Assembly: GCF_008831285.2 (NCBI RefSeq)
Contig: NC_045138.2
Span: forward strand, 6,138,001-6,202,000
Length of the DNA: 64,000 nt
Reading direction: 5' to 3'
From: Nymphaea colorata
Lineage: Eukaryota
Below, in pieces: positions 9,801-59,546 of the stretch. The notes beneath the pieces are model-generated. The model saw nothing but the letters and a program-made list of their open reading frames with translations, had not been told where the DNA came from and did no database searches. Each line of letters starts with the position of its first letter. Within the stretch, counting starts at the first letter, position 1. A program made the translations under genes and the position numbers.

Positions 9801-11415
9801 GGTCAGAGTTCCACAATAACTGGCACATATGCAGGCCAATACATTATGCAGGTATAGCAAAAAAGAGTTGACAAGAACATGACATAAAGCTGCTAACATG
9901 AATAGGATTTGAGCTTATTGTAACTCATAAAATTTCCCTGCAGGGTTTCCTAGATATGAAAATGAAGAAGTGGTTACGGAATTTTGTCACTCGATGCATC
10001 GCAATCACTCCAAGCTTGGTGGTCTCCATTATTGGTGGACCTGCGGGTGCAGGAAAACTGATCATCGTCGCTTCGGTAACACATAAATTCTATAGCCTTT
10101 AACTAATAATCTGCATATTAATTTGAGTAATGGTACTCCCCTTTACTTCCTCCTCAATATGTTGTTATACTTACCATGGTTTCATATATTAGCTGTTTCA
10201 ACTGTAAACTAAATAGTGAAGCCCACAATGGTGATAAAAGAAATCAACCACGTCCTTGGTACTACTGTAATTACATAAAATAACTTAATCATACAGAAGT
10301 AAAAATATCAATCCTAACATGAAGTAAGCTAGTTGATTTTCCAAAGATTGCAAATGAAATCCTTTTTGAAAAAAAAAAGTGAGGCAATTAAGCTGTGCGA
10401 GAAGCTTTAAACGCTTTCAGGATGAATGTTTAGAATCCTTAAATATACCCTTAGGATGCCTCGTATGTGCAAAAGCATCACCTCATGAAAGGCTGCAACC
10501 CAATGTATTAGACAACAGCCCTTAAAATTTGCCGATATGTCATGTGTTACATCCATCGTCATCGAAAAATTGCTTTTTCATCTTTATTATTTTAGTTCTT
10601 ATAGTTGAATGTGCAGATGATCCTATCGTTTGAGCTCCCATTTTCTCTTATACCACTTCTCAAGTTTAGCAGCAGTGAGACAAAGATGGGCCCCCACAAA
10701 AATTCCATCTTTGTAAGTACTAGTCAGAAAATTCTTATTCAAGCATGCTATAACAACCATTCATATTGGCTTTTAGGAGTTGTTTGGCATAATTAGGAAT
10801 AAGGTGTGAAGGTTTCATGAATCAGCCCCAAAATTGGGGTAGATTCATGAAACGGTTGAACAAGTTTCCCATGAATCTACTCCAAATTTGAGGTGGATTC
10901 ATGGAACACTCACATGTTTTTCCTAATGCCAACAGCCCCTTATATGTCACTAACACTACGAATGACAACCAAATGAAGAAATAGAAAAAAAATGTAGAAA
11001 TGGAAGTTGAGATTCAAGTATTTATATTTAAGAGTAGTCAATTAGGTTAGTAACTTCTCTCATTTATTTTATGTTGCAGATTGTCATTGTCTCATGGATC
11101 CTAGGCCTTCTTATAATTGGAATAAATGTATATTACCTTAGCACCGGCTTTGTTAATTGGTTGCTTCACAATAACTTGCCCAAGGTTGGGAGTATCTTCA
11201 TCGGCATCATAGTGTTCCCTCTCATGGCAATGTATGTTGCAGCAGTGGTATACTTGACTATACGAAAGGACAGGGTAGTTACGTATGTAGATAGATCAAA
11301 AGTTGATCAGTTTGGGAACCATGCCCAATCAGATAAAGAGTTGCAAGCTAGTGAAGCTATGGATGATGAGGTTCCTTATAGAGAAGACCTTGCTGATATC
11401 CCATTCCCAGAGTAG
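1301..11415 (+). CDS. NRAMP5: NRAMP-family Mn/Fe/Cd transporter, NRAMP5/NRAMP1 clade; 13 exons
   Basis: Exons, all GT-AG and in frame: 1301-1453, 1677-1755, 1902-1942, 2063-2141, 2214-2318, 2412-2521, 3052-3233, 6324-6393, 9478-9651, 9747-9851, 9944-10075, 10617-10712, 11080-11415. Translation has [66 protein letters not shown] and C-terminal [10 protein letters not shown], as in rice NRAMP5-type proteins. Confidence 0.95.
1782..1842. repeat. (AT)n microsatellite in NRAMP intron 2
   Basis: Pure TA run; similar runs at about 3293-3332, 3846-3884, 13576-13641, 18491-18546, 25304-25338, 59469-59543 (compound AT/AGAT/AG) and 63941-63997. Confidence 0.95.
3346..3625. repeat. 139-bp tandem duplication in NRAMP intron 7
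   Basis: TGGGGTGTTTTGGAGATTTAAAAAATTAGCCC...AAACATTAAAATTC starts at 3346 and again at 3485; copies nearly identical. Confidence 0.9.
5548..5622 (+). mobile_element. tRNA-Gly(GCC)-like SINE head or tRNA pseudogene
   Basis: A-box-like TGGCCGGGATGG, B-box-like GGTTCGAAT, acceptor-type pairing TGTCCC/GGGGCA, anticodon arm CATG-ACTGCCAAG-CATG with GCC at 5587-5589; T-arm is broken. Confidence 0.55.
5754..6200. repeat. Array of ~55-60-bp degenerate repeats, probably subterminal repeats of a non-autonomous DNA transposon
   Basis: Core CACTTGACTCGGGTTGTC..TATACTGGGTCATGAACCAAGACTCG recurs at about 5791, 5859, 5981 and 6036, with partial copies near 6093 and 6173. Confidence 0.7.
7702..8082. repeat. 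~185-bp tandem duplication in NRAMP intron 8
   Basis: GGAAAACAC...GGGCAAATTTGTGCATCTGCCAAAACAT...TTTATCATTAAAACCAATG occurs twice (about 7702-7884 and 7885-8082). Confidence 0.85.
8118..8424. mobile_element. hAT-type MITE (CTATGTCACATGGG family)
   Basis: TIRs TTAAGTCATATGGGTA / TACCCATGTGACTTAA, perfect 8-bp TSD GATTTGAC. Confidence 0.8.
10776..10939. mobile_element. Tourist (PIF/Harbinger) MITE in NRAMP intron 12
   Basis: TIRs GGAGTTGTTTGGCAT / ATGCCAACAGCCCC, TTA TSD on both sides, internal inverted repeats. Confidence 0.8.
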
Positions 11416-27974: not shown

Positions 27975-30249
27975 TTAGAAACAGAATCAAGATGACATGA
28001 TCTGTATTCAGTTTGTTGTGTCCCGGATACATGTTCATGATGCAACAAGCATCTCATCCCCATCTAAATTTTCAAATTTCGACCCAGTTGAATCTGAATT
28101 TATTACCAAAATTTAGAGCCATGTCCTCACCTGAATCTGAAAAATAGATTGGACATGGTAAAGCCTGAGTTAAATACCAGTCTAACCCATTCATATCCTC
28201 AGAATTCAGTCCGCCTAGACGTGGCTTTTACTCCATTTATATTAGGTAAGGACCCAGGTCCACTGAGACCTAACAATTGAAGCATCCTCACTCAGTTAAA
28301 GGCCATGTAGATCAAAATTAGCTTTCACATTTACATCAAACAAATCTGCACTTAAAAGTATCAATCCTGGTTTGCAACTCTATTTATTCCCTTTTTCATG
28401 TGTGATAGTGGACTTCCTATTAACTGCTAAACATGGGATTGTAAAATCCAAACCTGGATGTTGTGATTAAACTAGCAGATGTAAGAATGTAAATACCTTG
28501 AAGTCTTGTGGTCAAAGATGAACCCCAAGATGAACCTGGGCCAGAAGTGCATATAAATGGAGAATTTCTCCTCTGCATTTTGTGTCATAGAGCTTTCATA
28601 CCAAAAATTATAATAAATGGGGCAATAGAAGGGGAGTACCTTGAAAGAGCCATAGATTCCCCACTGGACATTAATGCCCCAATCATGATAACATGCAGTG
28701 AAAGACTGCACGTACGCAGACCCCAGGAACCAATGTAGTTCACAGCCCACAAGATGGACAGAGTTTACTTAAGAGCTATTTTGGCAACTAGCTAATAGAT
28801 AAGTGAACAAATGATGAACACCAAAACGAGGAAAATAGACAGCTCAAGAAGACATAAATCATTAACAGCTCAAGAAGACATAAATCATTAATTGTTGCCT
28901 CTGAAGAAGGACAACAAGATTATCAGCAGAATGAGAAATAATAGTGCAAAACACAACAACGAAGCTACAACAGTTCAATCACACACAAAACAACGACACC
29001 CCTCCCCCCCAAGTTCCCAACCCTTGTCAGGTTATGCAAAACCTAAAGGAAAACCAGGTTGGTGCATAGTCAAACATCCTGAAAACGATGTTTTGAAGGT
29101 TTTTTTCCTTTGAAACCCGGTTTTCGAGCGGGTCGCCAAACACCCCCTAAGTGTTTTCTGGATATATGCAAATAGATTATTTTAAAAAACATAAAATCAG
29201 AATTTGTTGAACAAATTTTGGTATTTATTTAGGATTTTTCATTGCACAGTTTCTAAAAGTAGAACAAAAATAGCACACCTCAAAAACAATTTTTCCTAAT
29301 GACCATATCAGCGACACAACCAGCAGTCCCACGAACTTTTTCAGATTTTATTTATCAAAAATTGAGTGAAGATATTGAAAAATGAAAACCAAGCATCTAA
29401 GTCAACAAGGCTCCTAAACAAATCCATGCCACAATTAAAGTGAGAACTAAATACGATAAGCACTATAATAAATAACCACTAAAGCAGAAAAAAAGAAAAA
29501 GAAAAAGAATGAACTACTATAAAATCTAAGCAACAATTGCCGAGCTCAACAAAACTAAAAAAAGTCTAACTAAACCAGAATATGATCCTACTGAAAACAA
29601 ATCAAACCAAAAACCTTTACCTATGCTGGACATGTAGAATACCTAACTAAGAAACATGACTAGTCAACTTTTCAAAAAACGTCAGTGTTCAAATCGACCG
29701 GTGCTTTCGAAAAAAGGTACCCTAAGTCTAGGTTATGCAAGTTGAAGACATTAATATGGAATAATAGGTCAAGTTTAATATCTTGTCCCAAATTGTCTAC
29801 CTCTCCTGAGACAAAGGAAACAATGGAGAACTTGTCACACCCAACACGGACTAGGTTTGACGGGTTTCATCTATTCCACGTATGGATGAGCAGTTTGGTA
29901 ATGAAATGGCCAAGTATCTCTCAAGAACAAAGGGGGATTGGTTAAATCCTCCTATCCTTAGGAAGCCTGGAATTATGATGTCAACTTTTTACTTTGAAAT
30001 AGTTCAAAAATGATTAAATTTAACTCATAAGTTTGAGTGTTTGTGTTGTAATATGGCCTTGATTTACACATACTACCGTACAAGCTTTAGGTTTCTTTTC
30101 GCATCAATGTTGTCGATGCTCTAGAAATGATGCCTTTCAATTTTCAAAGTAAAGATAATAAAAAAGGAGCAAATATTGAACCCAGACACACACATCCATG
30201 AAAGATTGTCACATTCAATTCTTAAGAGTTCAGCCTTCATGTCTTTCAT
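27975..30249. repeat. Segmental duplication copy B, block 1
   Basis: Direct repeat of 14682-17049. Confidence 0.92.
28637..28770 (-). pseudogene. Mitochondrial phosphate carrier (MPT/PHT3) C-terminal fragment, copy B
   Basis: Minus strand AVNYIGSWGLRTCSLSLHVIMIGAL, then a frameshift to VQWGIYGSFKV; matches the carrier motif RIVMIGTLTGAQWGIYDAFKV. Confidence 0.75.
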
Positions 30250-30497
30250 TCTCATTTTATTTCACCCCATCGTTCTCCTCTACTCTGCGGCTCTGCGAGA
30301 GCAGCGAGACTGGTTTTTGACGGCCTTCTTCGATACTCCCTAGACACACATCCACGAAAGATTGTCACATTCAATTCTTAAGAGTTCAGCCTTCATGTCT
30401 TTCATTCCCATTTTATTTCACCCCATCGTTCTCCTCTACTCTGCGGCTCTGTGAGTGCAGCGAGACTGGTTTTTGACAGCCTTCTTCGATACTCCCT
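30184..30497. repeat. ~157-bp tandem duplication spanning the duplication/hAT junction
   Basis: AGACACACA..CATCCA.GAAAGATTGTCAC...CTTCTTCGATACTCCCT at 30184-30341 and 30342-30497. Confidence 0.9.
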
Positions 30498-31763
30498 GTT
30501 GGGAGTTGGCCATCGGCCATCAGCTCTGCGACTACAGACTGCCACATTGCCGTCACCGACTCACCGCGGCGCCATCACCGCCGAAGGTTGGTTTTTCAAC
30601 CGCATATTGACGTTCCATGTTCTATCTCTCCTTCTTGCTATCACTCATAGTAACATAGTGTATATTAGTTGTAGGTATCTCTCGAGTCTCTCTGGATTGG
30701 CGGCCGCCGGCCCCTCTCTCTACATCTCTGATCTCTCTCCGTCTAGCATCGGCTGAAGGAAAAGAGAGAAGAAGACCGTTTTCTGTGAGGTTTTCCCCAA
30801 ATTCACAGCATGTGGGTTTCTATGAGGTTCTCTAAATGTAACCGTGCTGTTTTTGTACCAGTTTACTAGTGGTAGATTTTTGTCAGTTTACATGTGGTTT
30901 CATCATTTCATATTGCTCTTTGTAGTTTGTCTCCTGCAGTTTGGCTCACTATGTCGTTGGTCAGTTGCATTTTTTGTTTCATGTGGATCTCCTATTAGTG
31001 TATTCTTTCAGATCATTTAGGAACTTTGAGAGTTCTGAATTCAAACCAGAATCCAACATGTGCTTTTATGGGTGTTCAATTTTGATGAATTTATGAGGAT
31101 TCTCTCACTAATCCCTTCATTGATAGTCGTATAGCATTTTCGTATATCTATTGAAACTCAAATCTTCTCATTGTTGTTTGTCTTGATACCTGTGGGTGTT
31201 TGCGGACTTATTTAGAAACCTGGGGGGATCTTGCGATGGGAGGGTTATCTTGCGATGAAGAAGGATACGATGATCCACTTTCTGTCTTTTGGATAGCTCG
31301 TGCTTCAGAGGCCCCCGTTTGTTTGCATTGAGGGTTCATGAATGTTTTTCATGGTGTAAGGTGGACTATCCAAGTGATTGATCACAGGAGGTCGATGCAC
31401 AACTCACAATGTTTAGAACCGTGTGGAATAAACTTGTAAGTGTCATGGTTTTTGGATAAATTCTTTCTTTTAAAATTTGGTGGACAACTTGTCGGACCAC
31501 ATTGTGCCCAGAATGCAGCAGCAAGTCCTTCGATCTTTTGGGAGACATTGACATCATTGGACCATCTTTTTCCTTGTGTTGTTTGAGGGTATCTCCATTC
31601 TTCCAAAATCTACATAGTCTGGATTCTGCGTAGTCACACATACCTCGTCTTTGCATCTTAGTTTTTTTTCTTCTTCCTGGTCTTTTTCCTTCCTTTTCTT
31701 CCCCCCTTCCAACTGCATTTGTTAACTCAGTCATATGAACTTGCACAATTGGACTGTCAAAAA

Positions 31764-31967
31764 TAATGCATATGGTTAAGAAACCTTGTCTGATCATGTT
31801 ACATCTTTAGGTGATCTTCATTTCATTAACCTTGGTCTAGCCTCTGCCTTATGTAAGATTTATTTAATGCATATGGTTAAGAAACCTTGTGTGATCATGT
31901 TACATCTTTAGGTGATCTTCATTTCTTTAACCTTGGTCTAGCCTCTGCCTTATGTAAGATTTATTTA
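31764..31967. repeat. 101-bp tandem duplication
   Basis: TAATGCATATGGTTAAGAAACCTTG...TGTAAGATTTATTTA twice. Confidence 0.9.
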
Positions 31968-32595
31968 TCATTGTCATTTTACTGTATGTCAATTGAACAT
32001 ATTCCTGCAATCATTCTTTCGATGGCCAACTTGTGAGCTCTATTTCTCATGGACGTTTTGTTTTTGTCTGAGAGCTATACGAAGCTCATCGCAAAATTTA
32101 ATGATAAGCATGCATGTGACAACTATTGGGGGCTGAGTCCAAGATAATTGTAATGCTAGATTCCACCACAAGGTTTATGTGTGACAACTGACAATGTTAT
32201 GCATCCACTTTGCTTCTTAAGTTTCATTGAACTATTAAAGAGAGCCATTTGCAGGAATACATGCATTCTATATTTTACTATGAAATGAACAATGGTACTT
32301 TATTGAGTTATGTTGGCTAACAAAGTGTTTCAACTATTTGTTTGATAGATGGTTTGAGTATTTTAGACGACTGATTAATTAACCTCTCTCTATTTTGGTA
32401 TGTTTGTTTCTTTCAATAAGTTGCAACTTATTCTGTCCTAGTTATTGACTTATTGTTCATCAACATTTTCAATAAGTCTATTGTGCATTTTATTGTTCTT
32501 TTTTATTGTCTTGGTTTTATCTATATGTGTCATTTCAACTTATGTGAGTTATGTCGCCTAGTTATTTTGATAAATAATATTGTCCAACTCCTATT

Positions 32596-34426
32596 ATGAA
32601 AGCAATCGAATCATACTCATTTACCAAGAGAGAAGTTGTCTCCAAGAAAAAAAGGACTTCAAAAGTATAGATTGATTTTACATTGCTTAAATATAAGGAA
32701 AAAGAGTTTGTCAAATACAAACGTTGTGGAAAACGTTTGAAATGATGCACTGCTAATGGAACTAGTCATTTAAGTCGACATATAAACTTTTGTTTAAATA
32801 GGCAAATCAAGAAAGAAAAACAAAGAATTTTATTACTTGCAGTTAGTGACTTTAGTGCAATTTTACTATATATACAAAAATTTGACATGGAGTCTATAAG
32901 AAAGTCGATGTCAAAGTGTGCAATAGCATATGATCTTTCGTTCAATTTGACATAATATAAATATCATAACAACCTTCTTCAAGTTTGGAAAACAATGTTT
33001 GTTCCATTTTATAAAAGAACGTTAAAAAGAGAAATTATGTTAATGTTGAGAAAAACCCGATTTGAAGGATTTATAAATGATTCTACGAGCGAGTTTCGTT
33101 GACATTTGATATGCAGACTACACATCGAAGATTGAGTTATCTATGCGTGACAAGACAATATATTGATAGATATTAAAAATTGCATGCTCATATCTCATAT
33201 GTTCAATTTTGTACATGTACCTCCACCACATATATAATGCAAATAGTTTGTAGAAGTTTTAGCAGAATGCATCTCTAAATGGAACATTTTGTCAAAGTTA
33301 TTTTCTATTACTGCTGACCATTGTTCGACGAATAATAGTGCAATAACTACATTGAAAAGGAACTTAGGAAGAAGAAACCTTATTTAGTAAAAGGGCAACA
33401 TTTGTATATTCGATGTTGTGCACATATTCTAAATCTTATGGTTTCAAAAATTCGTGAAAATGTTAAATATATAAAGAGATAAACAAAGTGATTATATTCT
33501 TTTAAGAATTGTATAAGAACAATGGACTTGAATGTCACAAGAAAATTAACCTATGACGTTCCAACTCGATGGAACTTTACATATATTTGGTTAAGAAATG
33601 CATGATTCTAAAATGCATTTCAACATTTGGCTTATGTAAATCCCAATCATATAAATTTGTCTTCTGATGATGAATGATCTTATGCAACTTCCTTGTGCCC
33701 ACTTTTAAAGTTATGCTATAATGTTACAAATATCTTCTTTACCATTGGAAACATAACACCGAATGTGGTTTTTGAAGAAATATAAAAGGTATGCAACCAT
33801 TTGCGTATACATCATGTGGCAGGCAATGATTATATAAGGTCATTAACATACAAAATGCAAGAAAATTTTGACAAATATCGAAAAAATTACTACAATGTGC
33901 CATTTGAAATTGCATTTGTCTTAGATTCTCGATCTAAATTTGAATATTTAAAATATGTGATTGACAATTTAAATGAAGTTGATGCAATGATACAATATGA
34001 AAGAGTAGAGAGCAGTCTTCATGAATTGTATGCTGAGTACAAAAATGTATATGGTTCAAACGATGAATAAAATAAAAATGCAAATAATGCCATTATAGAA
34101 TTTGAAGAGAGAGCTTTTTCGAGACATATTACATGAGTTCCGCATCTCCTCAAGTACTTCGCACAGATCTGAACGCATATTTAACTGATCCAATGGAACG
34201 TCATCGGCCTAATGAAGACTTCAATATATCACCTTGGTGAAAGACAAATGAAAGTAAATATAGAGTTTTATCCAAAATAGCTCAAGATATATTGACAATC
34301 CATATATCTATGGTCGCATCTGAGTCTGCATTCAGTACAGCTAGAAGAATCATTAATGATTATCGATATTCAACCACTTCTGAAACTGTTGAAGCACTAG
34401 TTTGTACACAGAGTTGGATTCGTGAT
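32596..34426 (+). pseudogene. Decayed hAT (Ac/Tam3, SLEEPER-like) transposase
   Basis: BED-finger remnant (KRCGKRLK*CTANGTSHLSRH), FSITADHCSTN, HLYIRCCAHILNLMV, DVPTRWN, IAFVLDSRSK and dimerisation domain VASESAFSTARRIINDYR...VEALVCTQSWIR; many stops and frameshifts; no TIR found. Confidence 0.92.
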
Positions 34427-34713
34427 GAACATCTTACGTTTCGCTTGAATTGTCTTTATCACGAATCCAACTCTGTGTACAAACTAGTGCTTCAACAGTT
34501 TCAGGAGTGGTTGAACATCGATAATCATTAGATTCTTCCAACTATACTGAATGCAGACTCAGATGCAACCATAGATATAGGGATTGTCAATATATCTCAA
34601 GCCATTTTGGATAAAACTTTATATTTACTTTCATTTGCCTTCCACCAAGATGATATATTGAAGACTTCATTAGGCCGATGACGTTCCATTGGATCAGTTA
34701 AATATACTTCCAG
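34169..34713. repeat. Long inverted repeat (hairpin) of the hAT dimerisation-domain coding sequence
   Basis: Arm1 34169-34426 is the reverse complement of arm2 34458-34713 (18 substitutions plus one 2-nt indel by hand count); loop 34427-34457. Confidence 0.97.
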
Positions 34714-37700
34714 TTTTATTCCTTTTTTTCCCTCTTATCATCGAGATTAATCTGCACTTTACTTTATCCATCAGTCAGGATACGTGTTTAGTACTTTCAA
34801 TCTACATTTCTGTGCTTCATAAGCAACCTGCTACCAAGAAAGGGTGCAATCAGGAATCCATCAGGATCATCCATTAGAATACATTATTATGATGCTCCTG
34901 AGTGAGACAACTGAAAAAGAACCCAGAATCCCATGTGTAGAACAGCTCCAATTTGATCTGTTTGCAGATTCATGCAGTCTAGCAAAATCAGCTCACCAAG
35001 ATGAGTTCAGCTCAGAAAGATTAGTACATGGAATTGTGTATATACTGCCTAAATTTTAAGAATAGAATAACTTGTTGATGCAACTCGGCAACAAATATGT
35101 TCTTCTTGTCTGCAACTTCTCTACAAGAAAAAGTTTCCAAAATAAGCCATTTGTTGTGTAATTACAAAGCACTGCTTGAGTTATTTGAGAACAAGGACTG
35201 AGCAAACAGGCATGATCCTGCCAAGAAAAATAAATATATAAAATATATAGGTTGATGTTGGAAATTCCTTCCTTTAGCATCACGAAGTTAACTAGCCCAA
35301 CAAATTGCATAGCATTAGAAATGCAAGACCTACCAATAAAAAACAAGCTATCTGAAGCAATAGACAAGCAAATGGACCAAGCCGTCGACCAAAAAAGGTG
35401 CATTTCAGGGATACGCAGGGTATTTTTACAAAATAATTAAAATATGCAGGGGGTTATAGACTTTTAATGATACAAATATGAAATTAATCATGCTCCATCA
35501 TTTTGATGCTCACTTGCTCTTCCAAATAACCACTAAGAATAATGAAATCCCATAGTAACATAATGAAAATGAGACTCTATATACCTCTTTAGACTAGAGA
35601 TCCTGTGCCTTGATCTTAATCATTTCAGACTCCCACAAAAATTCTGGAAAAGGGATTTTCTTCACTTGAAGGCATTGTCGAAGAAATGCTTTTTGACAAA
35701 GTAGGTAAAATTCCTATAGTTCACAGAAGCCTTCCAATGATCTACCAGATGAACCAACTTAGACGCCCAGATCTTATCAACAAGAACCATCTAGGTAATA
35801 TACAGTGGCTAAGAACATGATCATGTTTCTCCTAGTAAAACAAATATTCAAATGTTCACTTTGAGCCATAAGATGGCTACTGAAACATCTTAAATTCTCT
35901 ATGACAGTTGATCACTTGATCATAGAATTCCTACTATAAAACTTTTCTAGGAAGCTGCTTAATACACCTTTAGTTTTTATTTTGGTCATTATGAGTAACC
36001 TTGGATATCATGATATGTATGACGAGGAAAAATGAAACTTAAAAAACGTGGTCATGTTTCTACTAGTATTATTACATGGAAATGGTGGTAACATTTTCCA
36101 GCAGATTACACATTTACTGGATAAGAGAATGCTTGGATAGGGGAATGCTTAAAATTCCCCAAATAGGTATCAAGTGTCCTTGAATGTCATGATCTCAGCT
36201 TCTGGCAATCAAAATACATTTCAGACAATTAAAATTTGGTCAAACACATGATTAAGAAATCACTTATTTAACTCTTTCTTAATAATAGAATCTCAAGATA
36301 GTTGAAGAGAATGGGTCATCATATTTAACACCAGCAGCGACTTAATTTAAGCCATCCAATGGTTCAAACAGTATATTTGAAAGTAGAACAGAAATGACAT
36401 ATATTCTAAAAATTATAGGAAATAACACAATGATATCATACCAGTTGGTGCTTCCAAATTTTTGCAAGATATGCTTTAGAAAAATGTCCCAGATCTACAG
36501 GGAACAATTGCAAAGATGAGTCTCAAGCCAGAAGATTAATTAAACAAATAAAATAGTTTTGAGAAGGGGACTCCAGGCAATGTTTACCTTTGTTGTTGCC
36601 CTAAATCTCTACAAATTGCTTCTTTACAACCAAAGGCACTGGGAAATAATGAGATGTGGTAAGGGAGCAGCTAGCATATAATGCCCAATTTGATTTGAAG
36701 GAGAATGCAGGCATAGGAGGAAGGAAAGCCTTCGGTTGTTCAAAGCAAAGTGATGATCTTCCACAGATGAGCAGTAATGTGCGAGTGACGCCTCTTATGG
36801 TAGGATACAGATGGTGACCAATCGATCAAATGAACAATGAAGCAGGGACCAAAAGATGACCAATCTGGTTTAGCGGAAGCATCGGCTGCAAAAGGGGGAA
36901 ATCTCTGGCATAGACAATTGGAATCCAATTCAAATGAAAAAAAGACAAATCTGATAAAGCAGCAGATGGGTCCAGAACTTAACGCCAAAGCGTTCTCTTT
37001 CTATCATGTGGAGAGCTTGCGATGATGCTAAGTTGCTAACCAGTGGGAAAAGAAAAACAGATGTTCAATGCATTCAAGGGAAACGGGTGAAAATTTTTCC
37101 GTTCCTCATGACCAATTTTGCCATTGAAAGAGAGAAGAAGTCGAATCGAAAACAGTCGATCAGAATCGCAAGGCAAATGGGCGCTTTGCCCTCATTCCAT
37201 TTCTTTAGCATCAAATAGAAAAAAAGGAACTATTCAAATATAAGAAAAAACACAAGTTTTTCCACATCCAAGGGAGAAATCCGGAATTGTGCACAGTAGT
37301 TGGAATACTGGTAGGAGTGAAGAAAAATGGCAGAGAGAGAGAAAGGCGAAACAAGAAGAGAGAGACAGAGATGACAGGCTGCAATGGACGGTGGGAAAAT
37401 GGCGGAGGAAGAGCTTGAGAGAGAGAGAGAGAGAGAGAGAAATACCTTTCACCGCTGCTAGACGCTGCGCTGGTGAGGAGATGCCCAAATCAAGCCGCTG
37501 GTGAGAACGCTGTGCAGGAGGAAGAATGCGCTGTGCAGGAGGAAGAACGCTGGCGACGGATGCATCTGGGCAGCAGCAGCGAGAGAAGGGGAAAGGCGTG
37601 ACGAAGGCAGGTTGGATGAAAAACAAGACGCGAGGGTTTCGAGTGAGAGATTAAGAGGGTTTTGAGCGAGGCTCGTTTGAGAGGCTGGAGGCGAGGAGAA
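34169..37700 (-). ncRNA. Putative spliced minus-strand non-coding transcript reading into the hairpin
   Basis: Minus-strand splice signals: donor GAAAG|GTATTT after 37446; exon-like 36885-36588 (TTTTGCAG / AAG|GTAAAC); 36494-36442 (CCTGTAG / CTG|GTATGA); donor after 35585; acceptor TTCTTGGTAGCAG before 34827. No long ORF. Prediction only. Confidence 0.35.
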
Positions 37701-37929
37701 GCCCAACCGGTAAAAAAATATTTCTCCAAATTTTTTACCTTTCAGGCGGAAAAAAAAATCCGAAAAAAAAATTCCGGAAATGGTTTCGTCACTTTTTTTT
37801 CTTTGGAGCACGGGTTTAGGTTCGGCCCCTGGTTTTTTGATGGGAAGAAATTTTTTTAAAAAATTTGAATTTCTTTTTCTGAGTGAATTTCCACTGCATC
37901 AAACGTAACATGATCATAATGTTTAAGCA

Positions 37930-38338
37930 ATGGAACGTAATCGAAAAACGAAAATAGAAAGGAAGTGAATAGGGGCAACGGTCGATTCTTTTGCTCGGTT
38001 TAAGCGCTTCATTTAGACAGATTTGTGAAAAATATTTATTTAAAAAAATCTTATAAACATTGATTTTCCAGTATCTCTAACTAATAATTCACGAGAAACT
38101 TGGTATGAAATTAAACATTTCAAATTTTGTAAAATCGTAGAAACTTATCTAAACAACCAAAAGCGCTTATCTAAACATGTAGCTTTAAACTTTGAAGACT
38201 ATTACGTTGCATTCTTTCAAAATGCACATTAAGATGATGATTAGAAAGAAAATTGCTGAACAAGTGTTACCGCATTATGTCGATATACTGTGGGTTCCAA
38301 ACAAGCTTCTCATTTCATATGAAACAAAAAACCACTAA
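37930..38338. repeat. Segmental duplication copy B, block 2 (putative promoter)
   Basis: Direct repeat of 20131-20590 plus 20972-20992. Confidence 0.88.
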
Positions 38339-41189
38339 ATGCATTTACAAGATGCTTTTAGCTCTTGCTTGACATTATCTTTACATATGAAACCATATAT
38401 TAGTTTTAAGTTAAATGTAGGTAAATAATTGCTGTTTCTTTAATTAACATTATCTTTACATGTGAAACCATATATTAGTTTTAAGTTAAATGAAGCATTG
38501 ACGAAAAATCTGAATGGTGGTAACGATTATGTCATATTTGGAACAAAAAGTTTCAAAGCGTTCAATATTCGTAGCCTAATTTCAAATGATGGTAGCTTTT
38601 TGGAATTTTTTAACCCTATGATATGTCCTGCATAATTTTTATAAAATTGCAGAACAAATAAATTAAAAATTTCTCCTAAAACTATTTTCTAGACGGTTTT
38701 CTTACTTCCAACCATAGATAAATATTTATCGGTGGATTCATTTTAAAGGAAAACAAAAACTAGACAAGAAAACTTGGCGGAAAACAAACAAAAAGAAAAT
38801 TCGACCCAATTTTGGGGAAATGGGTGCTTGGCTTTGATTCAGTTATGGTGCATACAAGTAAAACTTTAGAAATTAATGTCCCGCAAATAACATTTTACAT
38901 AAAAATCTTCTTTGATGGAAACCCTCCACCCGCCGGGGGCTAGGTTTTGCACAGTAACTTTATATGAGTCCAGCTGAGTTCGAGTTTATTAGCGACCAGA
39001 TTTAAAATCTACTTCTCTCAACTCAACTAAACCACTTGACTTGATTATTTGTTTTGTTAAAGTCAATAAATTTTTCCTTTTCTATTTTGTTTTTTCTCCT
39101 ACCAGTTCACTTTTCCCAAGGTAGCCTCCTTTGATGGCTGAAAATATGTTTTCAGAAAAAAGTTTTGAGAATGAAAAATAAATTTTCTTATTTTTAAAAC
39201 CAGGTTGTTGTGTTTATTAACTTGAAATTATTTTTCTGAAAACAAATTTCATCGTTTCTTAAATTTGAATTAAATTTCTGAAAACAAATTTCCTCCTCCT
39301 ATATAGTTTTCTAACATTTGAATCAATAGGAGATCTACAAATTTAAACTTAGTTGCCGACTGGATCCAAATTTTCTTACAAAAATTCAGCTGCTTGTAGC
39401 AAAATCGGATAAAAGATTGAATTTACATGCTTGCTTCCTATTCAAGTATTTTACATTAATTACCAATCAATTAAAGGATGAAGGAATCACAAACACATTG
39501 CCATTAATACATCAAGGTTTAGATCCTTATTGCCAAAAAATTCCATCCATAAGGAATTAATTAAACACCTATCCAATCTACATTTCACATGTCATGCCAG
39601 CCTATTGCTAGATCAAGTGAAAACATATTTAGGATATTCTACACATGATCACAAATTACAAATAGCGTTTTAGAGTTTTAAACAGCGATGATTTTCTTGG
39701 GCTTGGTGCGTTTGGATCTGGTTTCAGGTGGGAACCAGATCCAAACTGTATTATAACTAAAAAGTAAAAAGAAAATGACTTGATCTTTTATTTGTTTTTT
39801 GTTTTTTTTACTTGCATAATTATTAACATAAGAAGCCTCATTAACCAAGATGAAACCTTGATAATTTATTCATTAGCAGCCTCTTTTTGTTGGCATTTTA
39901 AGCTTTTTATCAAAATGAAAATGAACATTTTTGTCAATTTTTTTGAATTAATTATATATAATAGTTTTTTTGTCAATTTTTTTGAATTAATTATATATAA
40001 TAGTCATCGTACCCGTACCAGGATTTACGAAAACACCGTATCAATATCCGTACCCCCGTACCCGCACTCGTACCATTGTGACATAGTTTCTCATGCATAA
40101 TACGACAAACTTAAAAAAAGAAAAATATGATAAATTTTAAAAAAAATTTAAAAAAATAAAATAAGTGAGCAACTAATAACACAAACATCAAAAGATAAAT
40201 AGATTTGAAAAAAAAAATTGTTTGGCATTAAACCAAAAAATCCGACCATAAGAGGCGTCGTCAATGTGAGGAACTGGATCATTAAATTTGTTTCGTATTC
40301 GAATGCAGTAAAAAGCCTAAAATGGACACCAACTTTTGGCCAGCCTGACCCAGACTTCAAATCGGGCTAGGTTGGGCCTATGCCCAACCCTAGTCGTAAA
40401 GTATTTACCCTAGTTGCAAAGTATTTACGCATAACTGTCAGGCTATTAAAACAAAAAACAAACAATTATCATTACACACATTATATGTCCTGCAAACTAT
40501 GATTCTTTAGCTAGCTATGATGACCATATACTACCCAAATCTTGTTGAAGAAAATAGTCTTTTTGTTGCTTCACATATCAGTGGATATAATATGGCACCA
40601 AAGGATGCGTGCCAAAATTTCAATAAGATATGCAGGATAAGGTGAAATAAATTTGGTTTACTAAGGAAATTTTTTGCTTTTTTCATAAATGAAAGTTAGT
40701 GTTTGGCAGCTTATTTATGTATAATAGTAACCTTTTGTAAGGAGGCATATGAATGTTGCATTTATCAATGAAAATGACCTACATGAAAACATATTTTGTA
40801 CTAAGTCATGCACCATTATCAAATTGATCAACAAGACAAATTTTGATATAGAATTATTGATGCATGTAGTAATAGGTTATTGAAACTGCATGGTCTCTAT
40901 CTTATAGACTATACTTTTTACAGAAGAATTGCCGTTTTGATATAGAATTATTGATGCATAGATGTCACCCTTATTTATATCATCACAGTTAATAATCCCT
41001 TCACATTTGAAAACAGCTGGCATTAGCAGAATTTAGCAAAAATATATATTAATATACGCTTACCAAATAATCGCAATCTAGGTCTCAAAACAGCTTTAGA
41101 CTGTAGAAGGAAAAAGGGCTTTAAGGTATTTCTCACCAAATAACCAATTTGAGAGGATGCAAACCAATGACCACACTTGTAGTTAAGAT

Positions 41190-43152: not shown

Positions 43153-46100
43153 ATGGCTCCGGTAGCACAGAGCACTCAACCGTGGGTGGAGAAATAGTAA
43201 ATCCCCTTCTCCATCTTTGATTAATACCGCTAACATCCACCACCATCATTCCCTCCTTTCCTTTCTTCAGTATTATCGCCACCGCCTTCTTTCTCCTCCT
43301 TGTCTCGCCATCGTGAGCACCATCTCCACATCCATCACCATCACCATCACTAGAATCATCTTTATTTCTTCGGATTTCATTATTACAATCATCACATTTG
43401 TTATTTTCTTCACTGTGATTGCAGTAGGCCCAAGCAAGTGAAGGATGTCGCCCATCAGGATGAAGTTGTCAGGGTTCTCACGAACACCCTGGAGACCACC
43501 AATGTAAATATTTTCTCTTACCAGTTTTCTTTTCTGGAGAGAATTCTCGTCGTAGTTAAAGCCTTGAGGGGTTTGTTTTCTCTGATTGAATTCGTCATTT
43601 TCTTTTGGGGTTTTGAATGGTCAGTGCCCTCACATGCTCTTCTATGGCCCTCCCGGGACGGGGAAGACGACGACCGCACTTGCAATCGCCAATCAGCTAT
43701 TTGGGTATCATCGGAAACCCGACTGGCACCTCTTTTTCCTTCTCATTTGGAGATTGTGTCATGGGCGTACCTCCCTTTTCACTGTATTCTTTTTATATCA
43801 TGTTCGTAGTTTCCTTGCTGTCTTCTCTTCGCATTTTGTGCTTATTTTCTTGGCTTTATGAACGGAATAATGTTGTTTTAGGTTTTTTACGTCGCCGTTG
43901 TACGTGTCATTCTTAACTTGCTAGACTGAAGCATGAATTCATAAACTTGAAATGCTAGAAACTTGGATGTTGGAAGTTATTTAACCAGTTGTTCTCAAGC
44001 TTCTAGAATGCCCTCCCCTTCTACTTATTGGAGAGTGCCTATGTTTAACTTATTACTATATTAGTGGGACCTGAATTTGCAGGGAAACATTTTCCGCTTA
44101 CTGGTGTGGTGTCCAGTGGACACGTTCGAGGACCCCCTAGCCCATGAACTAAGTTATCCACTTGTCCACTTTTCTGTATGAGTAGTGAGATCTGGTTAGG
44201 CATCCTGTGAAACTCATCGGGGATCATTCTCCTATGAGTGCTTTCATCACTATTGAAGCACTTATTACATCATTCAAGGAAGAGGTCCTTTCAAGAAATG
44301 CATGGTTAATGCTCGCACATTAACCTACCGAATCTGTTCATTACTCTATCTCTTTCCTACTAGAGCATGTCTTGATCTGTTCTTGTGTCAATGACTCCTG
44401 CGGATTGGTTGCCCGAATAATCTCTTGCAGGCCTGAGCTGTACAAATCAAGAGTCCTTGAACTAAATGCGAGTGATGATCGTGGGATCAATGTAGTGAGG
44501 ACCAAAATCAAGGATTTTGCAGCAGTTGCGGTAAGCTCTGGAAGCCGCAAAGGGTAAGCTCTCTTTCCACTTAAAAGTCCGTTTTCTGTCATAAGAGGTA
44601 TTTTGATTTCTTCTTCTTCGAAACACCAGTGGATATCCTTGCCCACCTTATAAGATCATTATCCTAGATGAAGCTGACTCAATGACAGAAGATGCCCAGG
44701 TACGTAACATATTTTGAATGACAGTTTAGGTTTAATTGTTACTATTTTTTTTTCCCTTTATACATTTCTTTATGCAGAATGCCCTGAGGCGGACCATGGA
44801 AACTTACTCTAAGGTTACACGGTTTTTTTTCATTTGCAACTATATTAGCAGGTACTCACTTGTATTTGCACAGGACAATGAGACCAATTCGATCCTTATG
44901 TACATCTCTGATTGCATGTCTGTGCAGGATCATAGAACCACTTGCTTCTAGATGTGCAAAATTTAGGTTTAAGCCCTTGTCGCAAGAAATTATGAGCAGT
45001 CGTATACAGTATATATGCCAAGAAGAAGGTCTTATCCTGGATCCAGATGTACTAACGCAACACCTGATGGACTAGTTTTGTGGATCTTTATTTTTGGCAC
45101 CACTTTTCTATAGATTGCTGACACAACATATAACTAAATGCAGGCACTCTCAACTTTAAGTTCCATATCTCAAGGTGATCTACGTCGAGCTATAACATAC
45201 TTGCAGGTAGCTTTCTAAATAAACTTCATCATCTATCCTTTTCCATAGATGTGTATGCATATGCGTCCATTATGTAAGGGTAGTAGAATATGTGTACTCA
45301 TGGTTCATGAATGTGAGAGACCACGATAACGACTTTGAGCATTTTGATCAATCAGTTTGGATAGCTTACAGTCTGATACATGAATAACAAGCTGTTGGAA
45401 ATTTACTTTTGATGTGGCAGGTTGTAAATCATTCTTTCAGTTTGACTGGATGACTCAGTTATTCTCGTATTTTCTTATTTTCATATGCTATTAGACCTAT
45501 ATCTGTACATTTGTATGCTCCATGCTTGCATGTGCATACGTGTGTTTTTGTTGAGGCGAGGTGGTGTTGCGTGCTGTTGAATGTGTGTGTGTAGTGGTCT
45601 AAAAGAACTATCCTTCAAACTTTGTAAATCATTCTTAAGTCTTGACATCATTTATTCTCTACTTTTATGTGCTTAAGTATTTATGTGGAGTCCCAAAACT
45701 ATTTCTATCTTGTGTTCATGATTTGAAAGTGCTTAATTATTTAACTTTATAAACAATGAATCTCTTTTTTATTGAGATTACCGAGCTGCAAAAACAGTAA
45801 GTGGTTCACTGTAATCACACATGTGCAGTCGGTATGACCAATTGGTGCCTAAATCCTGTATTTTCTGTAACTGCAGCTAGATTCCACAGTACTGAGCTGT
45901 GTTCCTTTGGAAGTGAAAATTCAATTGAAGTTCATTTTTAAATTACTGTTAGGACTGATCTTCATATTTGACTGTCTAGGGGGCTGCTCGGTTGTTTGGA
46001 TCATCTATTTCCTCTGCTGACTTGATCAGTGTTTCAGGGGTACACTTATTTCTTCTTTACTCTTGTTTTTACTGTTAAGGGCTCTGTGCATTCTTTTAGT

Positions 46101-54000: not shown

Positions 54001-57000
54001 TATCATACAAAAATCACAGAGTAAGAGAAAGGGTGTTCCATACTATCGGATTGTAAAAACAATGTGAATCAACTTCCTCAGATATAAAGGTAACCCTTCT
54101 CAAATGATAATCTGATTTAAGGCACATTAAGAAGGCAGTTGGTACTGTATTCTTTTAATTTAACTGGTTTAAGAATGAATGTTAGTTCCAAAAAAGCAAG
54201 CATCGGAATGCCATCTATGTAATAATCCACACATGATACCTTGTTAACATACGATAAGGTTCTCGAAGATCTTTTGTAATGAGATCATCTATTAATGTTC
54301 CAATATAACTGCTTTCTCTCTCTAGCACAATCAATGACTTCCCTTGAGAATGCCTTGCTGCATTAATTCCAGATATGAGGCCCTGCATAAATGAAGATGT
54401 TGATCTATGAGCCAGTATTGGGGGATAAAAGTCAGAGTAGACATATACCCTATGTCACACAAGGACGTGGGTCTTGCCCACATACCTGTACCGGTACGGC
54501 AGTACGCCAATTCAAGTACTATGGTACACCTTGGTACGCTTTGGATTGGTTCTGAGTCGAATCAATCCAAACCACTTTAAATAAACCCATTTTCGCCCGA
54601 TGCCTCTTCCTCATTCCTTACCTTCATACAACATATCTCCGGCAATAGATGCAGTGGAGAGCTTTACTGGTTGGCGGTGACCAGCGACGGATGTCGGTCG
54701 GCGGCGATCGGCGACAGACGTGTTGGAGGTAAGTGTTTTTTACATTCTCTTCTTAGGGTTTTTTTGATTTCCCCCCCCCCCCCTTTGTTGTTTGTTACTC
54801 TATTTTCATGTTTCTTCTGTCATTGTTAGAGAGTTGGATAAATCTTTGTTTAGATTTTTGGCTTGCTCCACAAGTGAACGTGTTCATCTGTTTCCCGTGC
54901 ACTCTGATTTGAAATCAATCCCACACCGTGTCATCTGTTTCTTATATTTGTGCTACTTTTTTTGCTAATTTCATGTTTATGTTTGAACTGCCGTGTTTTA
55001 AAGACTTCATTTATATTCACCTGTTTCGCTGGTTTCAATTATATTTCACTGGCTTCATTTATATTCACCTGTTATGATTGGGTACGTTTGGAATGGTTCC
55101 GGGTCAAAACCGATCCAAACCACAAAAAAAACATTGTTTTAGTCTATTTATGTTTCTTTTATGAGATTATATGGAGGAACTGTGAAAGGAACATTGTCTT
55201 AATGATGTGATGATATCAATTTGTTTTTGGAATTAAAAATATATAATTATCGCCGTACCGCCATACTAAGATTGGTAAAAATGTTGTAACCATACCCGCT
55301 TCCCCGTACCCGCACCAACACCCGTACCTGTACCTATGTGACATAGAATATACCAGTACAAATCTTTCCCATTTTGATAGCCAAATAGATAAAATTGAAC
55401 ACAAGCAAGAAACAGGAGGACTGAATAAATGAAAGTACAAAACAAAAACATGGCAGATATATAGAAAACCTGAGCGGCAGCTTCTTCATAGCCTGTGGTT
55501 CCATTTATCTGGCCTGAAAAGAAAAGCCCTTCAACCTTTTTAGTCATGAGGGATCTAGAACATTGATAAGCAGGCAAAAAATCATATTCCACCGCATAAG
55601 CAGGCCTTAGCATTGAACAGTTCTCAAGTCCAGGCAATGTCCTAAGGAGAGCGAGTTGTAGGTTCTCTGGTAGACCAGTAGAGAAACCCTGCACAAAAAG
55701 GAATTTGCTTATAAAATTAGTCAACAGAATAAGACAAACAATGGTGATGGCTCAGTCACTATCTTTTTTAAGAGTCATAAAGAAATTTCTGAAGCATTTT
55801 TAATGAAAATTCCATCTCCTTACAAGTTGATCCATGACAAGTCAATGCAATCATTCATATAAACAATTAGACAGCAGGTCAGTTTGAAGTACCATAGGTA
55901 GTGGACTGGCTTAACACAGTCACAGATTTTTCATAAAACTAGCAAGAAATATAAACCACTGTCACACGTATTGGCATTATTTTTCAAAAAAGCACAAAAA
56001 AATGGGGAAAATAGAGGAAAACAAAAAGTAATACTAAAAAAATCAAGAAATGAAAAAAATTTGTAGGATCATTTTTTTCCATTTTTTCAGAAACAGAATG
56101 AATTTTAATAACTTTATTTGAGGTTTATTCAAACAAATTATTAAGCATTTTAATTTTTTTATTGATGTTTTCTAGAAAATTAATAGAAAACTCAAAATTT
56201 CATACTTCTTATTTTTTAATTTTTTGAGCTTTTGAGATTTTCAAAAACCAAACTTCCCAACTAACACCTGAGAAAAACCTTGCCGATACAAACCTGAAAT
56301 TGATATTTGTGACAATGATAGAAACAAATTTAGTTGATCATAAGCTTGCAGACCTGAACATATAATTCTGGTACATTTCTTCCTTCGGGTTCAAGAAAAA
56401 TTTGATGAGATTCTTTATCATGAAACCTCACTATCTGAAAGAAACAAACAAAAATGTACCAGTTCAGATCACAATTGGATAAATCGTAGATAGATTTCTC
56501 CATACTACATGCAAAACTGAATAACAAATGTAGTTTCCTTGAAGCATGAATTCACAACATGTTCCAAACACATCACAGGCACAATCTAAATCTTTAATGT
56601 CCAAGATTACTCTTCAGATCAGAGCCTCAAACTGGAGACTTGTACATGCGTCCAAAGACAGTAAAAGAGTACTGGATGTCTTTGTTCAGCAAGCTGAATT
56701 AACAGTGAGCTATGTCACATGGGCACGTGACATTTGCCCAAGTACCTGTGTCGGTACATGGGTACAGCGACATGGATACATGGGTATGGCTGTATTTTAA
56801 AACTAAAAAATTTATCTTTTTAAACTTTATTTGTTATTTTTTCCTTCTTTTTTCTATTTCCCTTCCACCTAGATTTATATTTCCTCCCACTTTTCTTTAA
56901 TTTTGAAAATTTTCAATATATATATATATTCTGCCGTACCCGTGTACCCATAATTTTCAAAAATGGTGTGCCTGTACCCACACTGCCATACCCGTATCAC

Positions 57001-59461
57001 ACCCATGTGACATAGACAGTGAGATATTAGTACACTATTCCTTTGAGCTGCAAACAGTAACAAGTGCCACACTCGAGTTGAAAAGTGTACTATAGGACCA
57101 CGCAAGCCCGAAGCAAGCTAGAACCTTAGAGGCATATAGCGTACGGTCTTGGAGGTTTTACGCCAAAGGCGGTTTCCTCTAAGTAAACATTAATAATTGA
57201 TAGTGAAATGTTATAAATTCACTTAACTTCAGTCCAAACGAGTTATCATGCTACTTGTCCTTATATACTCATGAGTCACGACACGACATCCCTCTTCCCG
57301 TAGTGGTATGTTTCCCTCCTCCCCCCCCCCCCCCCCACCCCCCCCAAACAAAAAGAACAAAACTTGATGTGAGGAGGTTATATTGCTAAATCTTAGACTT
57401 GTTGGCTTAAGTAAATGGGTCACCACATTCTCATACTCTAACATTATCACTTTGCCCTGCAGGAGGCTCAATGTTCTCCAGCAAAAGAGTACAATAAATG
57501 CACAAGGTTACATATACACCAATAGAAATGTGATACCTAGCACCTTTTAAGGCATATCTCAAATATGCAAAAAATAAAGTTGCTTCTTGTCTTTTTTTTG
57601 CACTGATGGAAGAGTTCCTTTCTGTTGATGCATGTGAAAAGTCTCTCATCATGAATCCCATCATGAGCGATCAAATGATTAACTTGAAAACCGGGCAAAA
57701 AGGAAAAAGCATGGTCGTAAAAACATGTCACAAGATATGTTTCAATAGTGAGTAGAACAGGAAAAGACTCATCTCCATGTAATGATTCTGATGCCAAAAA
57801 AAAAATCCCCAGAAACAACCAATATGCATAAAAAAACGCGAGATGTAATAAAACCATACCTTATCTTCAATAGAAGGGCAATATCTAGGACCCTTAGCTT
57901 CAACCCAGCCCCCATAAGTTGGAGTTTGATGCAGATTATCTCTGATAAGTTTGTGAGTGCTTGGTGAGGTGCGTGTCAAATAACAGTACATCTGTTCTCT
58001 TTCAATATGAACATCAGGATCAAAACTGAACCAGCCAACCTGTTGATCAAAATTAAAAGAGGAACTCTTAGTTGAAGAAAAAAGCATGTGGGCATGGCTA
58101 TATATGTGCAATCGCGGTACTAATTTCTCCTACATGATTCTCTTCATACACCATGGTCACCCTTGTGTTCAGTGAAATTATACATCATTTTTAGGGTAGA
58201 AATTGGACTTGACTTATTTGTTATCTTCAAATTGCTTATGTTTGCAACAGTATTCCCCAATTTCTGACTAATGTCCAACTGTGCCTTTCTGCATCACCTT
58301 GCCCCTGCAGCCATTCTTGTCCTCATGTGCTTATGTAACATCATACTGCAATCTTATCATCCCTTTGCTACACTTCATTGTGCCCCAGGCACATGGTTTA
58401 AAGGTTTCCAAAATAATAGAATGTTTAGATGTTGGCACTTGTTAGCACAAGGGAAAATGAATGATGAGTTCTTATAGTATTAGCAGCTTGCAGACAACTT
58501 ATACAAATTCAGACACAACAAAAATGCACTTAAATATGGTCTTGTCCTAGATCCAAGGTCCCCAAAAGGCAGAGTAACTAGTAGTTCCCAGACATACAAA
58601 TGCAGACACCTCAAGAAATATACTTAAATATGGTGTCTTCTTAATCCAAACATGCAGATGCCTCATTGTTTGTTTTTTATGAACAATCCTTGGTCAAATT
58701 GGTTTCATAAAAAGTATAAATATTTTAACCATCAATTTTACAACCATTATTTTTTATTCCTCAAAAGAACATCTACACATGTAAAATGTCTAAATATATT
58801 TCTCCTTCTAAGACAATCATAGGATTGAATCTACAAGGGTGTCCTCATGTGCTTATGTAACATCATACTGCAATCTTATCATCCCTTTGCTACACTTCAT
58901 TGTGCCCCAGGCACATGGTTTAAAGGTTTCCAAAAGAATAGAATGTTTAGATGTTGGCACTTGTTAGCACAAGGGAAAATGAATGATGAGTTCTTATAGT
59001 ATTAGCAGCTTGCAGACAACTTATACAAATTCAGACACAACAAAAATGCACTTAAATATGGTCTTGTCCTAGATCCAAGGTCCCCAAAAGGAAGAGTAAC
59101 TAGTAGTTCCCAGACATACAAATGCAGACACCTCAAGAAATATACTTAAATATGGTGTCTTCTTAATCCAAACATGCAGATGCTTCATTGTTTGTTTTTT
59201 ATGAACAATCCTTGGTCAAATTGGTTTCATAAAAAGTATAAATATTTTAACCATCAATTTTACAACCATTATTTTTTATTCCTCAAAAGAACATCTACAC
59301 ATGTAAAATGTCTAAATATATTTCTCCTTCTAAGACAATCATAGGATTGAATCTACAAGGTCAGATTGTTCAAAAGTAGACATGGAACTACTTGTTTCCA
59401 ATTTAGAGGTGCCTCAATTTGTTACGAACATAAGCCATCTAGGATTCCATTGCCGATTTCC

Positions 59462-59546
<85 letters not shown>

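Follow-up and report, generated by a model that had tools for sequence, protein, structure and literature searches.

In maize, Mu killer is described as a transposase gene duplicated in part and in inverted orientation, for which transcription from flanking sequence has been proposed, a read-through model that is also reported as disputed (PMC3440606). Mu killer belongs to Mutator and not to hAT, has arms of ca 1.3 kb from the 5′ end and two TIRs, and is described as a genetically proven silencer. For hAT elements, a published killer is Ack1 (p1-ww-id1), also from maize, for which both siRNAs and silencing are reported (10.1101/2020.01.07.897926; PMC13635294). In the Ac-killer allele id1 the dsRNA is attributed to the promoter of a flanking gene (10.1101/2020.01.07.897926). 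By the published account, Ack1 is recent and arose by alternative transposition, the Ac 5′ ends and promoter have been kept, its silencing is heritable and its siRNAs have been shown.

Several related systems are also relevant here. Long-inverted-repeat loci that give hairpin RNA, described for soybean (CHS), apple, rice and Drosophila, produce siRNAs against paralogues (PMC8728187). In Arabidopsis halleri, the hairpins of Aha-miR52a–c come from inverted or juxtaposed hAT sequence and are predicted to target the parent family, and the corresponding 24-nt, AGO4-loaded miRNAs are reported as sequenced (10.1101/2024.07.25.605110). Hairpin RNA engineered with G:U pairs is reported to escape self-silencing, the C-to-T changes breaking the DNA repeat and keeping the RNA duplex; in this design all cytosines of the sense arm are changed, corresponding to 18–26% of the positions (PMC9263138). 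In this early-diverging lineage of flowering plants, hAT elements are reported to be the most abundant DNA transposons (10.64898/2026.08.14.744852).

Here, we analyse a stretch of 64,000 nucleotides from Nymphaea colorata (contig NC_045138.2, positions 6,138,001 to 6,202,000, forward strand), called the window below, in which a fold-back of hAT transposase sequence had been noticed and interpreted as a candidate natural killer of its family. The locus combines an inverted duplication of transposon sequence, promoter-driven RNA directed toward this repeat, and homologous relatives that are expressed. Like Ack1, it is an inverted duplication of hAT sequence with a flanking promoter, and like Mu killer, for which this origin of the RNA has been proposed, it duplicates part of a transposase in inverted orientation next to a flanking source of transcription. 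Unlike Ack1, its arms are made up solely of 3′ coding sequence, the search for terminal repeats gave none, the arms have diverged by 7%, and silencing is only predicted. As in the long-inverted-repeat loci, the repeat is derived from a gene, but the arms of 260 bp fall below the LIRBase cut-off of 400 nt (PMC8728187); the predicted targets are transposase copies, and the siRNAs, known in those loci, are here a prediction. In contrast to Aha-miR52, this is a long fold-back of transposase coding sequence, and its small RNAs are a prediction. Compared to the engineered G:U design, 13 of ca 260 pairs (5%) are affected, distributed over both arms, and an escape from self-silencing is only hypothesised. 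The concept of a hAT killer is already published with Ack1, and the Nymphaea locus would join this known class. Our literature search, in which few subscription papers were covered, returned neither this hairpin locus nor a natural killer with a G:U bias.

Structure and origin of the hairpin

The elements of the hairpin and of its parent gene are the following:

30250 to 32550, plus strand: putative hAT 5′ leader and intron, of which ca 30687–30778 is common to a well-expressed relative
32551 to 34429, plus strand: dead hAT transposase with BED finger, RNase H fold and dimerisation domain, its coding part without intron
34169 to 34429, plus strand: left arm, which is the 3′ end of the pseudogene and the antisense (3′) arm of the minus-strand hairpin
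34430 to 34454, minus strand: loop of 25 nt, transposase sequence in frame from the right arm
34455 to 34713, minus strand: right arm, the 5′ arm of the minus-strand hairpin, with sense codons of the dimerisation domain (residues 557–643 of the relative P0009)

The fold-back of the transposase 3′ end is present as originally claimed, with 240 of the 261 alignment columns being reverse complementary (92%). Some of its details had to be revised: the loop is 25 nt long and not 31, and the arms differ by 19 substitutions and one 2-nt indel at 34352–34353 and not by 18 differences. Folding confirms that the hairpin is strongly stable. The calculated energy is −380.2 kcal mol−1 for the plus strand (z = −44, with none of 100 shuffles being as good) and −423.1 kcal mol−1 for the minus strand, the stem of which has uninterrupted paired runs of 74, 47, 44, 43 and 38 bp. 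In a search of the whole window, 34169–34713 is the strongest inverted repeat, and no other comes close. Three weaker and short inverted repeats are found at 10792–10927, 5312–5387 and 61303–61360 (78–83%).

It is instructive to consider the loop, which is no spacer and holds the next codons of the transposase, oriented as in the right arm. Read on the minus strand, this arm continues as D-K-D-N-S-S-E-T, compared to D-E-D-I/N-S-C-E in the relatives, and the codons in the loop itself read D-N-S-S-E-T against D-I/N-S-C-E-T/M/I; in the left copy the match to the relatives ends after D-E. Since the right arm reads on in frame through the loop, the loop belongs to the right copy, which means that the left copy simply snapping back on itself is insufficient to account for the structure. 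Template switching, or a fold-back followed by the loss of most of one arm, would be suitable origins. The arm ends ca 19 codons before the C-terminal end of the intact relatives, and the right arm has a stop and a 2-nt deletion of its own. We have also considered an arrangement of two whole elements placed tail to tail and rejected it, as the DNA to the right of 34713 does not contain the hAT leader in inverted orientation (best E = 0.12).

The structure also bears on whether the inversion could be an artefact of the assembly. Among the reads displayed, none was seen to span the loop or the junction at 34713, as an artefact would have it. Against this, each arm has its own derived changes, the codons in the loop are absent from the left copy, and RNA contigs agree with the sequence flanking the hairpin to the left and to the right, with 0 differences. 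We agree therefore with the original prediction on this point and consider an artefact to be highly improbable.

The divergence between the arms is 0.077, which under assumed rates would correspond to an age of 3–13 million years. The true age would be younger than this if methylated cytosines have decayed fast, and older if gene conversion has taken place. The locus lies in a local duplication, in which 14682–17049 matches 27975–30249 at 81% and 20111–20518 matches 37910–38289 at 83%. The two units, 14682–20518 and 27975–38289, have their ends in common and unrelated middles, the hAT and the hairpin being present only in the second one.

A number of other features were observed in the surroundings. 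Tandem duplications are found at 30188–30497 (154 nt), 31764–31965 (101 nt), 58318–59360 (521 nt) and 18250–19336 (ca 570 nt), the first of which extends across the left-hand boundary of the hAT insert. Reads with loose ends at 29977–30405 point to further expressed copies elsewhere. Among the neighbours, 55266–62553 (minus strand) contains GidA/MnmG exons (Pfam GIDA). By resemblance, 11038–11415 (plus strand) would be an NRAMP-like last exon and 43354–43809 (plus strand) a replication-factor-C-like exon, neither of which has a Pfam match above the cut-off.

The parent transposase and its relatives

The pseudogene at 32551–34429 carries 15 in-frame stops, frameshifts and a deletion of 33 nt (11 codons) at 33444. 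In a Pfam search the arm was identified as the hAT dimerisation domain (PF05699, E = 5.7e-20), and the pseudogene also matches PF14372. The closest relatives are proteins of N. colorata and N. thermarum that have been automatically named RICESLEEPER-like, and members of the family were found on four different N. colorata sequences. The protein identity to the best Nymphaea relatives is 65% over the degraded middle part and ca 78–80% over the arm. Outside Nymphaea it is only 36–43%. A metagenome scan with the arm protein gave 117 pattern matches and 0 confirmed relatives. The segment corresponding to 30687–30778 in the expressed relative has a contig depth of 230.6 with several differences, making this relative a candidate for the main expressed member of the family.

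The residues D187, D253, C286, H289, W349 and E608 are retained in the relatives, each of them in 103–113 of 113 wider homologs; for D187, D253 and E608 of P0009 the numbers are 103, 111 and 106 of 113, respectively. E608 aligns with the ASE motif of Hermes, and D187 and D253 are presumably catalytic.

SLEEPERs, which had been suggested as targets of the hairpin, are described as being without the residues required for transposition (PMC3499209). Since the relatives keep the catalytic-type D, D and E, unlike the SLEEPERs so described, the parent family looks, on the basis of its sequences, like transposases rather than domesticated genes, which speaks against targets of the SLEEPER type. Some SLEEPER-like traits are found as well, namely an intronless coding sequence and a basic NLS-like run of the KRKR/KKKR type before the BED finger, neither of which is exclusive to SLEEPERs; an intron in the 5′ UTR of the hAT gene would be a further one. 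A limited scan of the hAT, the 3′ end of which is lost, gave no terminal inverted repeats flanked by a target-site duplication of 8 bp.

Transcription of the locus

We now turn to the RNA evidence. Reads were mapped to 29600–38400 from two raw RNA runs, of which 6% and 19% were read, yielding 223 and 419 reads. A third raw run (X20) contributed 5 reads only, none of them near the hairpin locus, and a contig set, presumed to be of RNA origin, contributed 36 contigs. Of the sequence words, runs of organisms B–E contain just 0.09–0.14 and those of organism F 0.38–0.40. The features of the resulting spliced non-coding RNA (lncRNA), listed in the direction of transcription, are:

37910 to 38289, minus strand: promoter-side upstream region, duplicated at 20111–20518 (83%)
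37446 to 37659, minus strand: exon 1, GC-rich, 5′ end at least at 37659, probable donor at 37445
36588 to 36904, minus strand: exon 2, contig piece with 0 differences, GT..AG
36442 to 36494, minus strand: exon 3, with read joints on both sides
34729 to 35120, minus strand: exon 4, contig 34729–35121 with 0 differences and a depth of 82.6
34715 to 34720, minus strand: AATAAA in an A-rich tract directly before the stem, a possible polyadenylation signal judged from its letters
34040 to 34230, strand undefined: low-level locus-specific RNA at the outer end of the left arm, contig with 0 differences and a depth of 4.2

The joint 36494–36588 is supported by 12 and 13 reads and the joint 35120–36442 by 9 and 9 reads, in both cases in two of the three raw runs. 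The corresponding introns, 36495–36587 and 35121–36441, have CT..AC ends, that is, GT..AG on the minus strand. As the libraries have no mate bias, the strand of the transcript is taken from these splice sites. One contig joins 37451–37659 to 36588–36906 and skips 36907–37450, which implies a further intron at 36905–37445. The spliced RNA contains no ORF longer than 37 codons, its exons have no Pfam match in any of nine frames, and Rfam has no match anywhere in the window. The introns (35092–37364) are covered by contigs with 0 differences at depths of 6.5–18, suggesting a substantial amount of unspliced RNA.

The promoter of this lncRNA lies outside the transposon. The RNA supported by the data runs on the minus strand and is driven from outside the element. 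We have also considered the hAT's own promoter, acting on the plus strand, as the main source and rejected it, because the depth at 31070–31657, in the putative leader intron, is zero in all four runs. Moreover, the displayed reads in the leader carry the letters of a relative and not those of the window.

The last exon can be traced to 34729, 16 nt short of the stem. Its raw depth is ca 17–18 (bin means 14.1 and 13.6, the bin being 78% exon). Past the hairpin the raw depth is 1–4.5, partly from relatives, and the contig depth is 4.2 compared to 82.6 in exon 4, such that the RNA beyond the stem is ca 5–25% as deep as before it. In the displayed rows of the right arm, 34541–34587 and 34652–34681, no raw read has the full set of window letters, and at 34652–34681 all of the 2–3 reads per run bear the letters of a relative. 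The loss of reads at the base of the stem, together with the AATAAA, indicates that most of the stable RNA ends at or near this point. Polyadenylation, co-transcriptional cutting and poor sequencing of duplex RNA may all fit the loss. The RNA at 34040–34230 is a candidate for the 3′ end of a read-through transcript.

These results can be viewed in terms of a mechanism without any killer function, in which the lncRNA is polyadenylated at the AATAAA before the stem, the repeat is neutral debris under ordinary RdDM, and the G:U bias discussed below is due to chance or to strand-biased mutation. The signal at 34720–34715, the contig end at 34729 and the lack of a displayed locus-specific read from the right arm are all in line with this. 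Long inverted repeats are also very common, with 6.6 million reported in 424 genomes (PMC8728187), and the changes are mostly C>T or G>A, as in methylated DNA. However, locus-specific RNA is present past the stem, the bias is found on the transcribed strand and in the arms only, and the arms have been preserved better than the pseudogene body. We regard this inert repeat as possible, if somewhat unlikely.

Another option is that the locus is a proto-MIRNA, an inverted duplication in the course of becoming the source of a precise miRNA directed at hAT transcripts. A spliced transcript without an ORF and with the hairpin in its last part is what one would look for, plant pri-miRNAs are reported to be cut co-transcriptionally (PMC9023350), and young hAT-derived miRNA loci such as Aha-miR52 are known (10.1101/2024.07.25.605110). 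However, the fold-back of 545 nt exceeds the 300 nt allowed by the 2018 MIRNA criteria (10.1101/213314), which also require at least 75% of the reads to fall in one miRNA/miRNA* duplex, with replication; the stem is near-perfect with few bulges, and Rfam gives no match in the window. The earlier proposal of a young miRNA is not borne out by this length, and we consider a proto-MIRNA to be improbable.

Pairing bias and conservation of the arms

For each pair of the stem, one transition leads to a G:U pair in the minus-strand RNA and one leads to a mismatch, with a neutral expectation of 1:1. Out of 16 arm-to-arm transitions, 13 were found to produce G:U pairs in the minus-strand RNA and A:C in that of the plus strand (two-sided p = 0.021). 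It is important to point out that this bias was counted first, and that its strand later proved to be the transcribed one. The energy gap of 43 kcal mol−1 between the two strands is reached by 2 of 150 strand-symmetric simulations.

The body of the pseudogene shows no such bias. With a homolog minimum of 2, G>A changes amount to 30/164 and C>T changes to 20/129 (p = 0.64), and with a minimum of 3 the result is the same in kind (17/93 vs 10/77, p = 0.40). The bias is therefore limited to the arms, where 13/16 compares to a fraction of 0.54 (one-sided p = 0.023). The polarised C>T changes in the arms split 11 vs 3, which with these small counts gives p = 0.054 against the body rate.

The arms also retain codons conserved in Nymphaea to a larger extent, 63/74 and 60/69 compared to 299/412 upstream (p = 0.021 and 0.011), counts that exclude codons close to gaps as well as columns with discordant homologs. 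Intact relatives deviate by 2–8% upstream and by 0–8% in the arm region, and have no regional contrast of that size. When the comparison is made for the columns conserved family-wide, the right arm (33/36) still differs from the upstream part (73/102) with p = 0.02, and the difference for the left arm (30/37) is not significant (p = 0.28).

These observations suggest selection keeping the stem paired. C>T and G>A make up most of the changes, a pattern typical of methylated DNA, and a strand-biased, transcription-linked deamination that ends with the transcript could mimic selection. A strand-specific and arm-confined G:U bias is, on the other hand, not predicted if the locus is mainly a Pol IV cluster of 24-nt RNAs, siren-like in ovules and independent of the fold, with the hairpin being incidental. 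Siren loci of N. colorata are reported to be enriched in hAT sequence (10.64898/2026.08.14.744852), which would fit such a cluster; all in all, we find this scenario quite implausible.

Candidate targets

In each of the two deeper raw runs, the arm region is covered by reads that are ca 91% alike. They represent at least two relatives, with 6–10 reads at the arm and a contig depth of ca 26–32. Guide strands are predicted to come from the left arm, which gives 213 antisense 21-mers. Scored against the expressed relative, 151 of them have a penalty of at most 3 and 10 are perfect, a rough estimate made by position from the displayed differences only and mixing at least two relatives. Many of the changes in the left arm pair with the target as G:U.

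The original prediction had envisaged a broad coverage of the family. Since the relatives outside Nymphaea are just 36–43% identical at the protein level, targeting at the nucleotide level is instead likely to be limited to one water-lily subfamily. Furthermore, since the relatives are still expressed, any effect would be a dampening or tissue-limited one and not complete. At 34560, the conserved glutamate of the catalytic type has its codon altered in some expressed relatives (4 of 6 reads in one run), and part of the expressed hAT family may thus be defective.

Conclusion

The explanation that we favour, with about even chances of being correct, is that this is an old locus for hairpin siRNAs of the same kind as Mu killer and Ac killer, driven by a host promoter and predicted to dampen one hAT subfamily of the water lily. 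A promoter outside the transposon would drive the spliced, minus-strand non-coding RNA up to the inverted duplication of the dead hAT 3′ end. A fraction that reads through would contain both arms and could form the hairpin of 260 bp, which Dicer-like enzymes would cut into siRNAs; alternatively, RNA that is diced co-transcriptionally might feed the siRNA output. The siRNAs, with guide strands from the left arm, are predicted to dampen the closely related hAT copies that are expressed. The drop of reads at the base of the stem would then reflect co-transcriptional cutting, the inefficient sequencing of duplex RNA, or a principal polyadenylation site with a minority of read-through.

In favour of a killer are the inverted duplication, the promoter-driven RNA toward it, the G:U bias in the arms only, and the expressed relatives that are ca 91% alike. 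Against it are the lack of a locus-specific read from the right arm, the AATAAA before the stem, the shallow RNA beyond it, and the fact that the relatives are still expressed. Of the original interpretation, what has held up is a spliced transcript reaching the hairpin, substitutions on its strand that favour G:U, and expressed relatives; the broad coverage, the SLEEPER targets and the young miRNA have not.

A more far-reaching version, which we consider unlikely, is that of an old killer maintained by selection, in which the promoter of the lncRNA has captured a fold-back of the dimerisation domain and C-to-T changes retained over millions of years keep the RNA duplex and erode the DNA repeat. 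If this were true, nature would have arrived at the G:U hairpin design by which transgenes avoid self-silencing, and the polyadenylation signal at the base of the stem would ration the dsRNA. Mu killer and Ac killer, for which the killer function is proven, are alleles of recent origin in maize stocks, and the question that arises is whether such hairpins persist in wild genomes under selection. The locus provides a testable candidate in an early-diverging lineage of flowering plants, with a known transcribed strand, arm-specific variants and candidate targets, and the strand-specific G:U test, which needs no RNA data, could be applied genome-wide in the search for functional hairpins.
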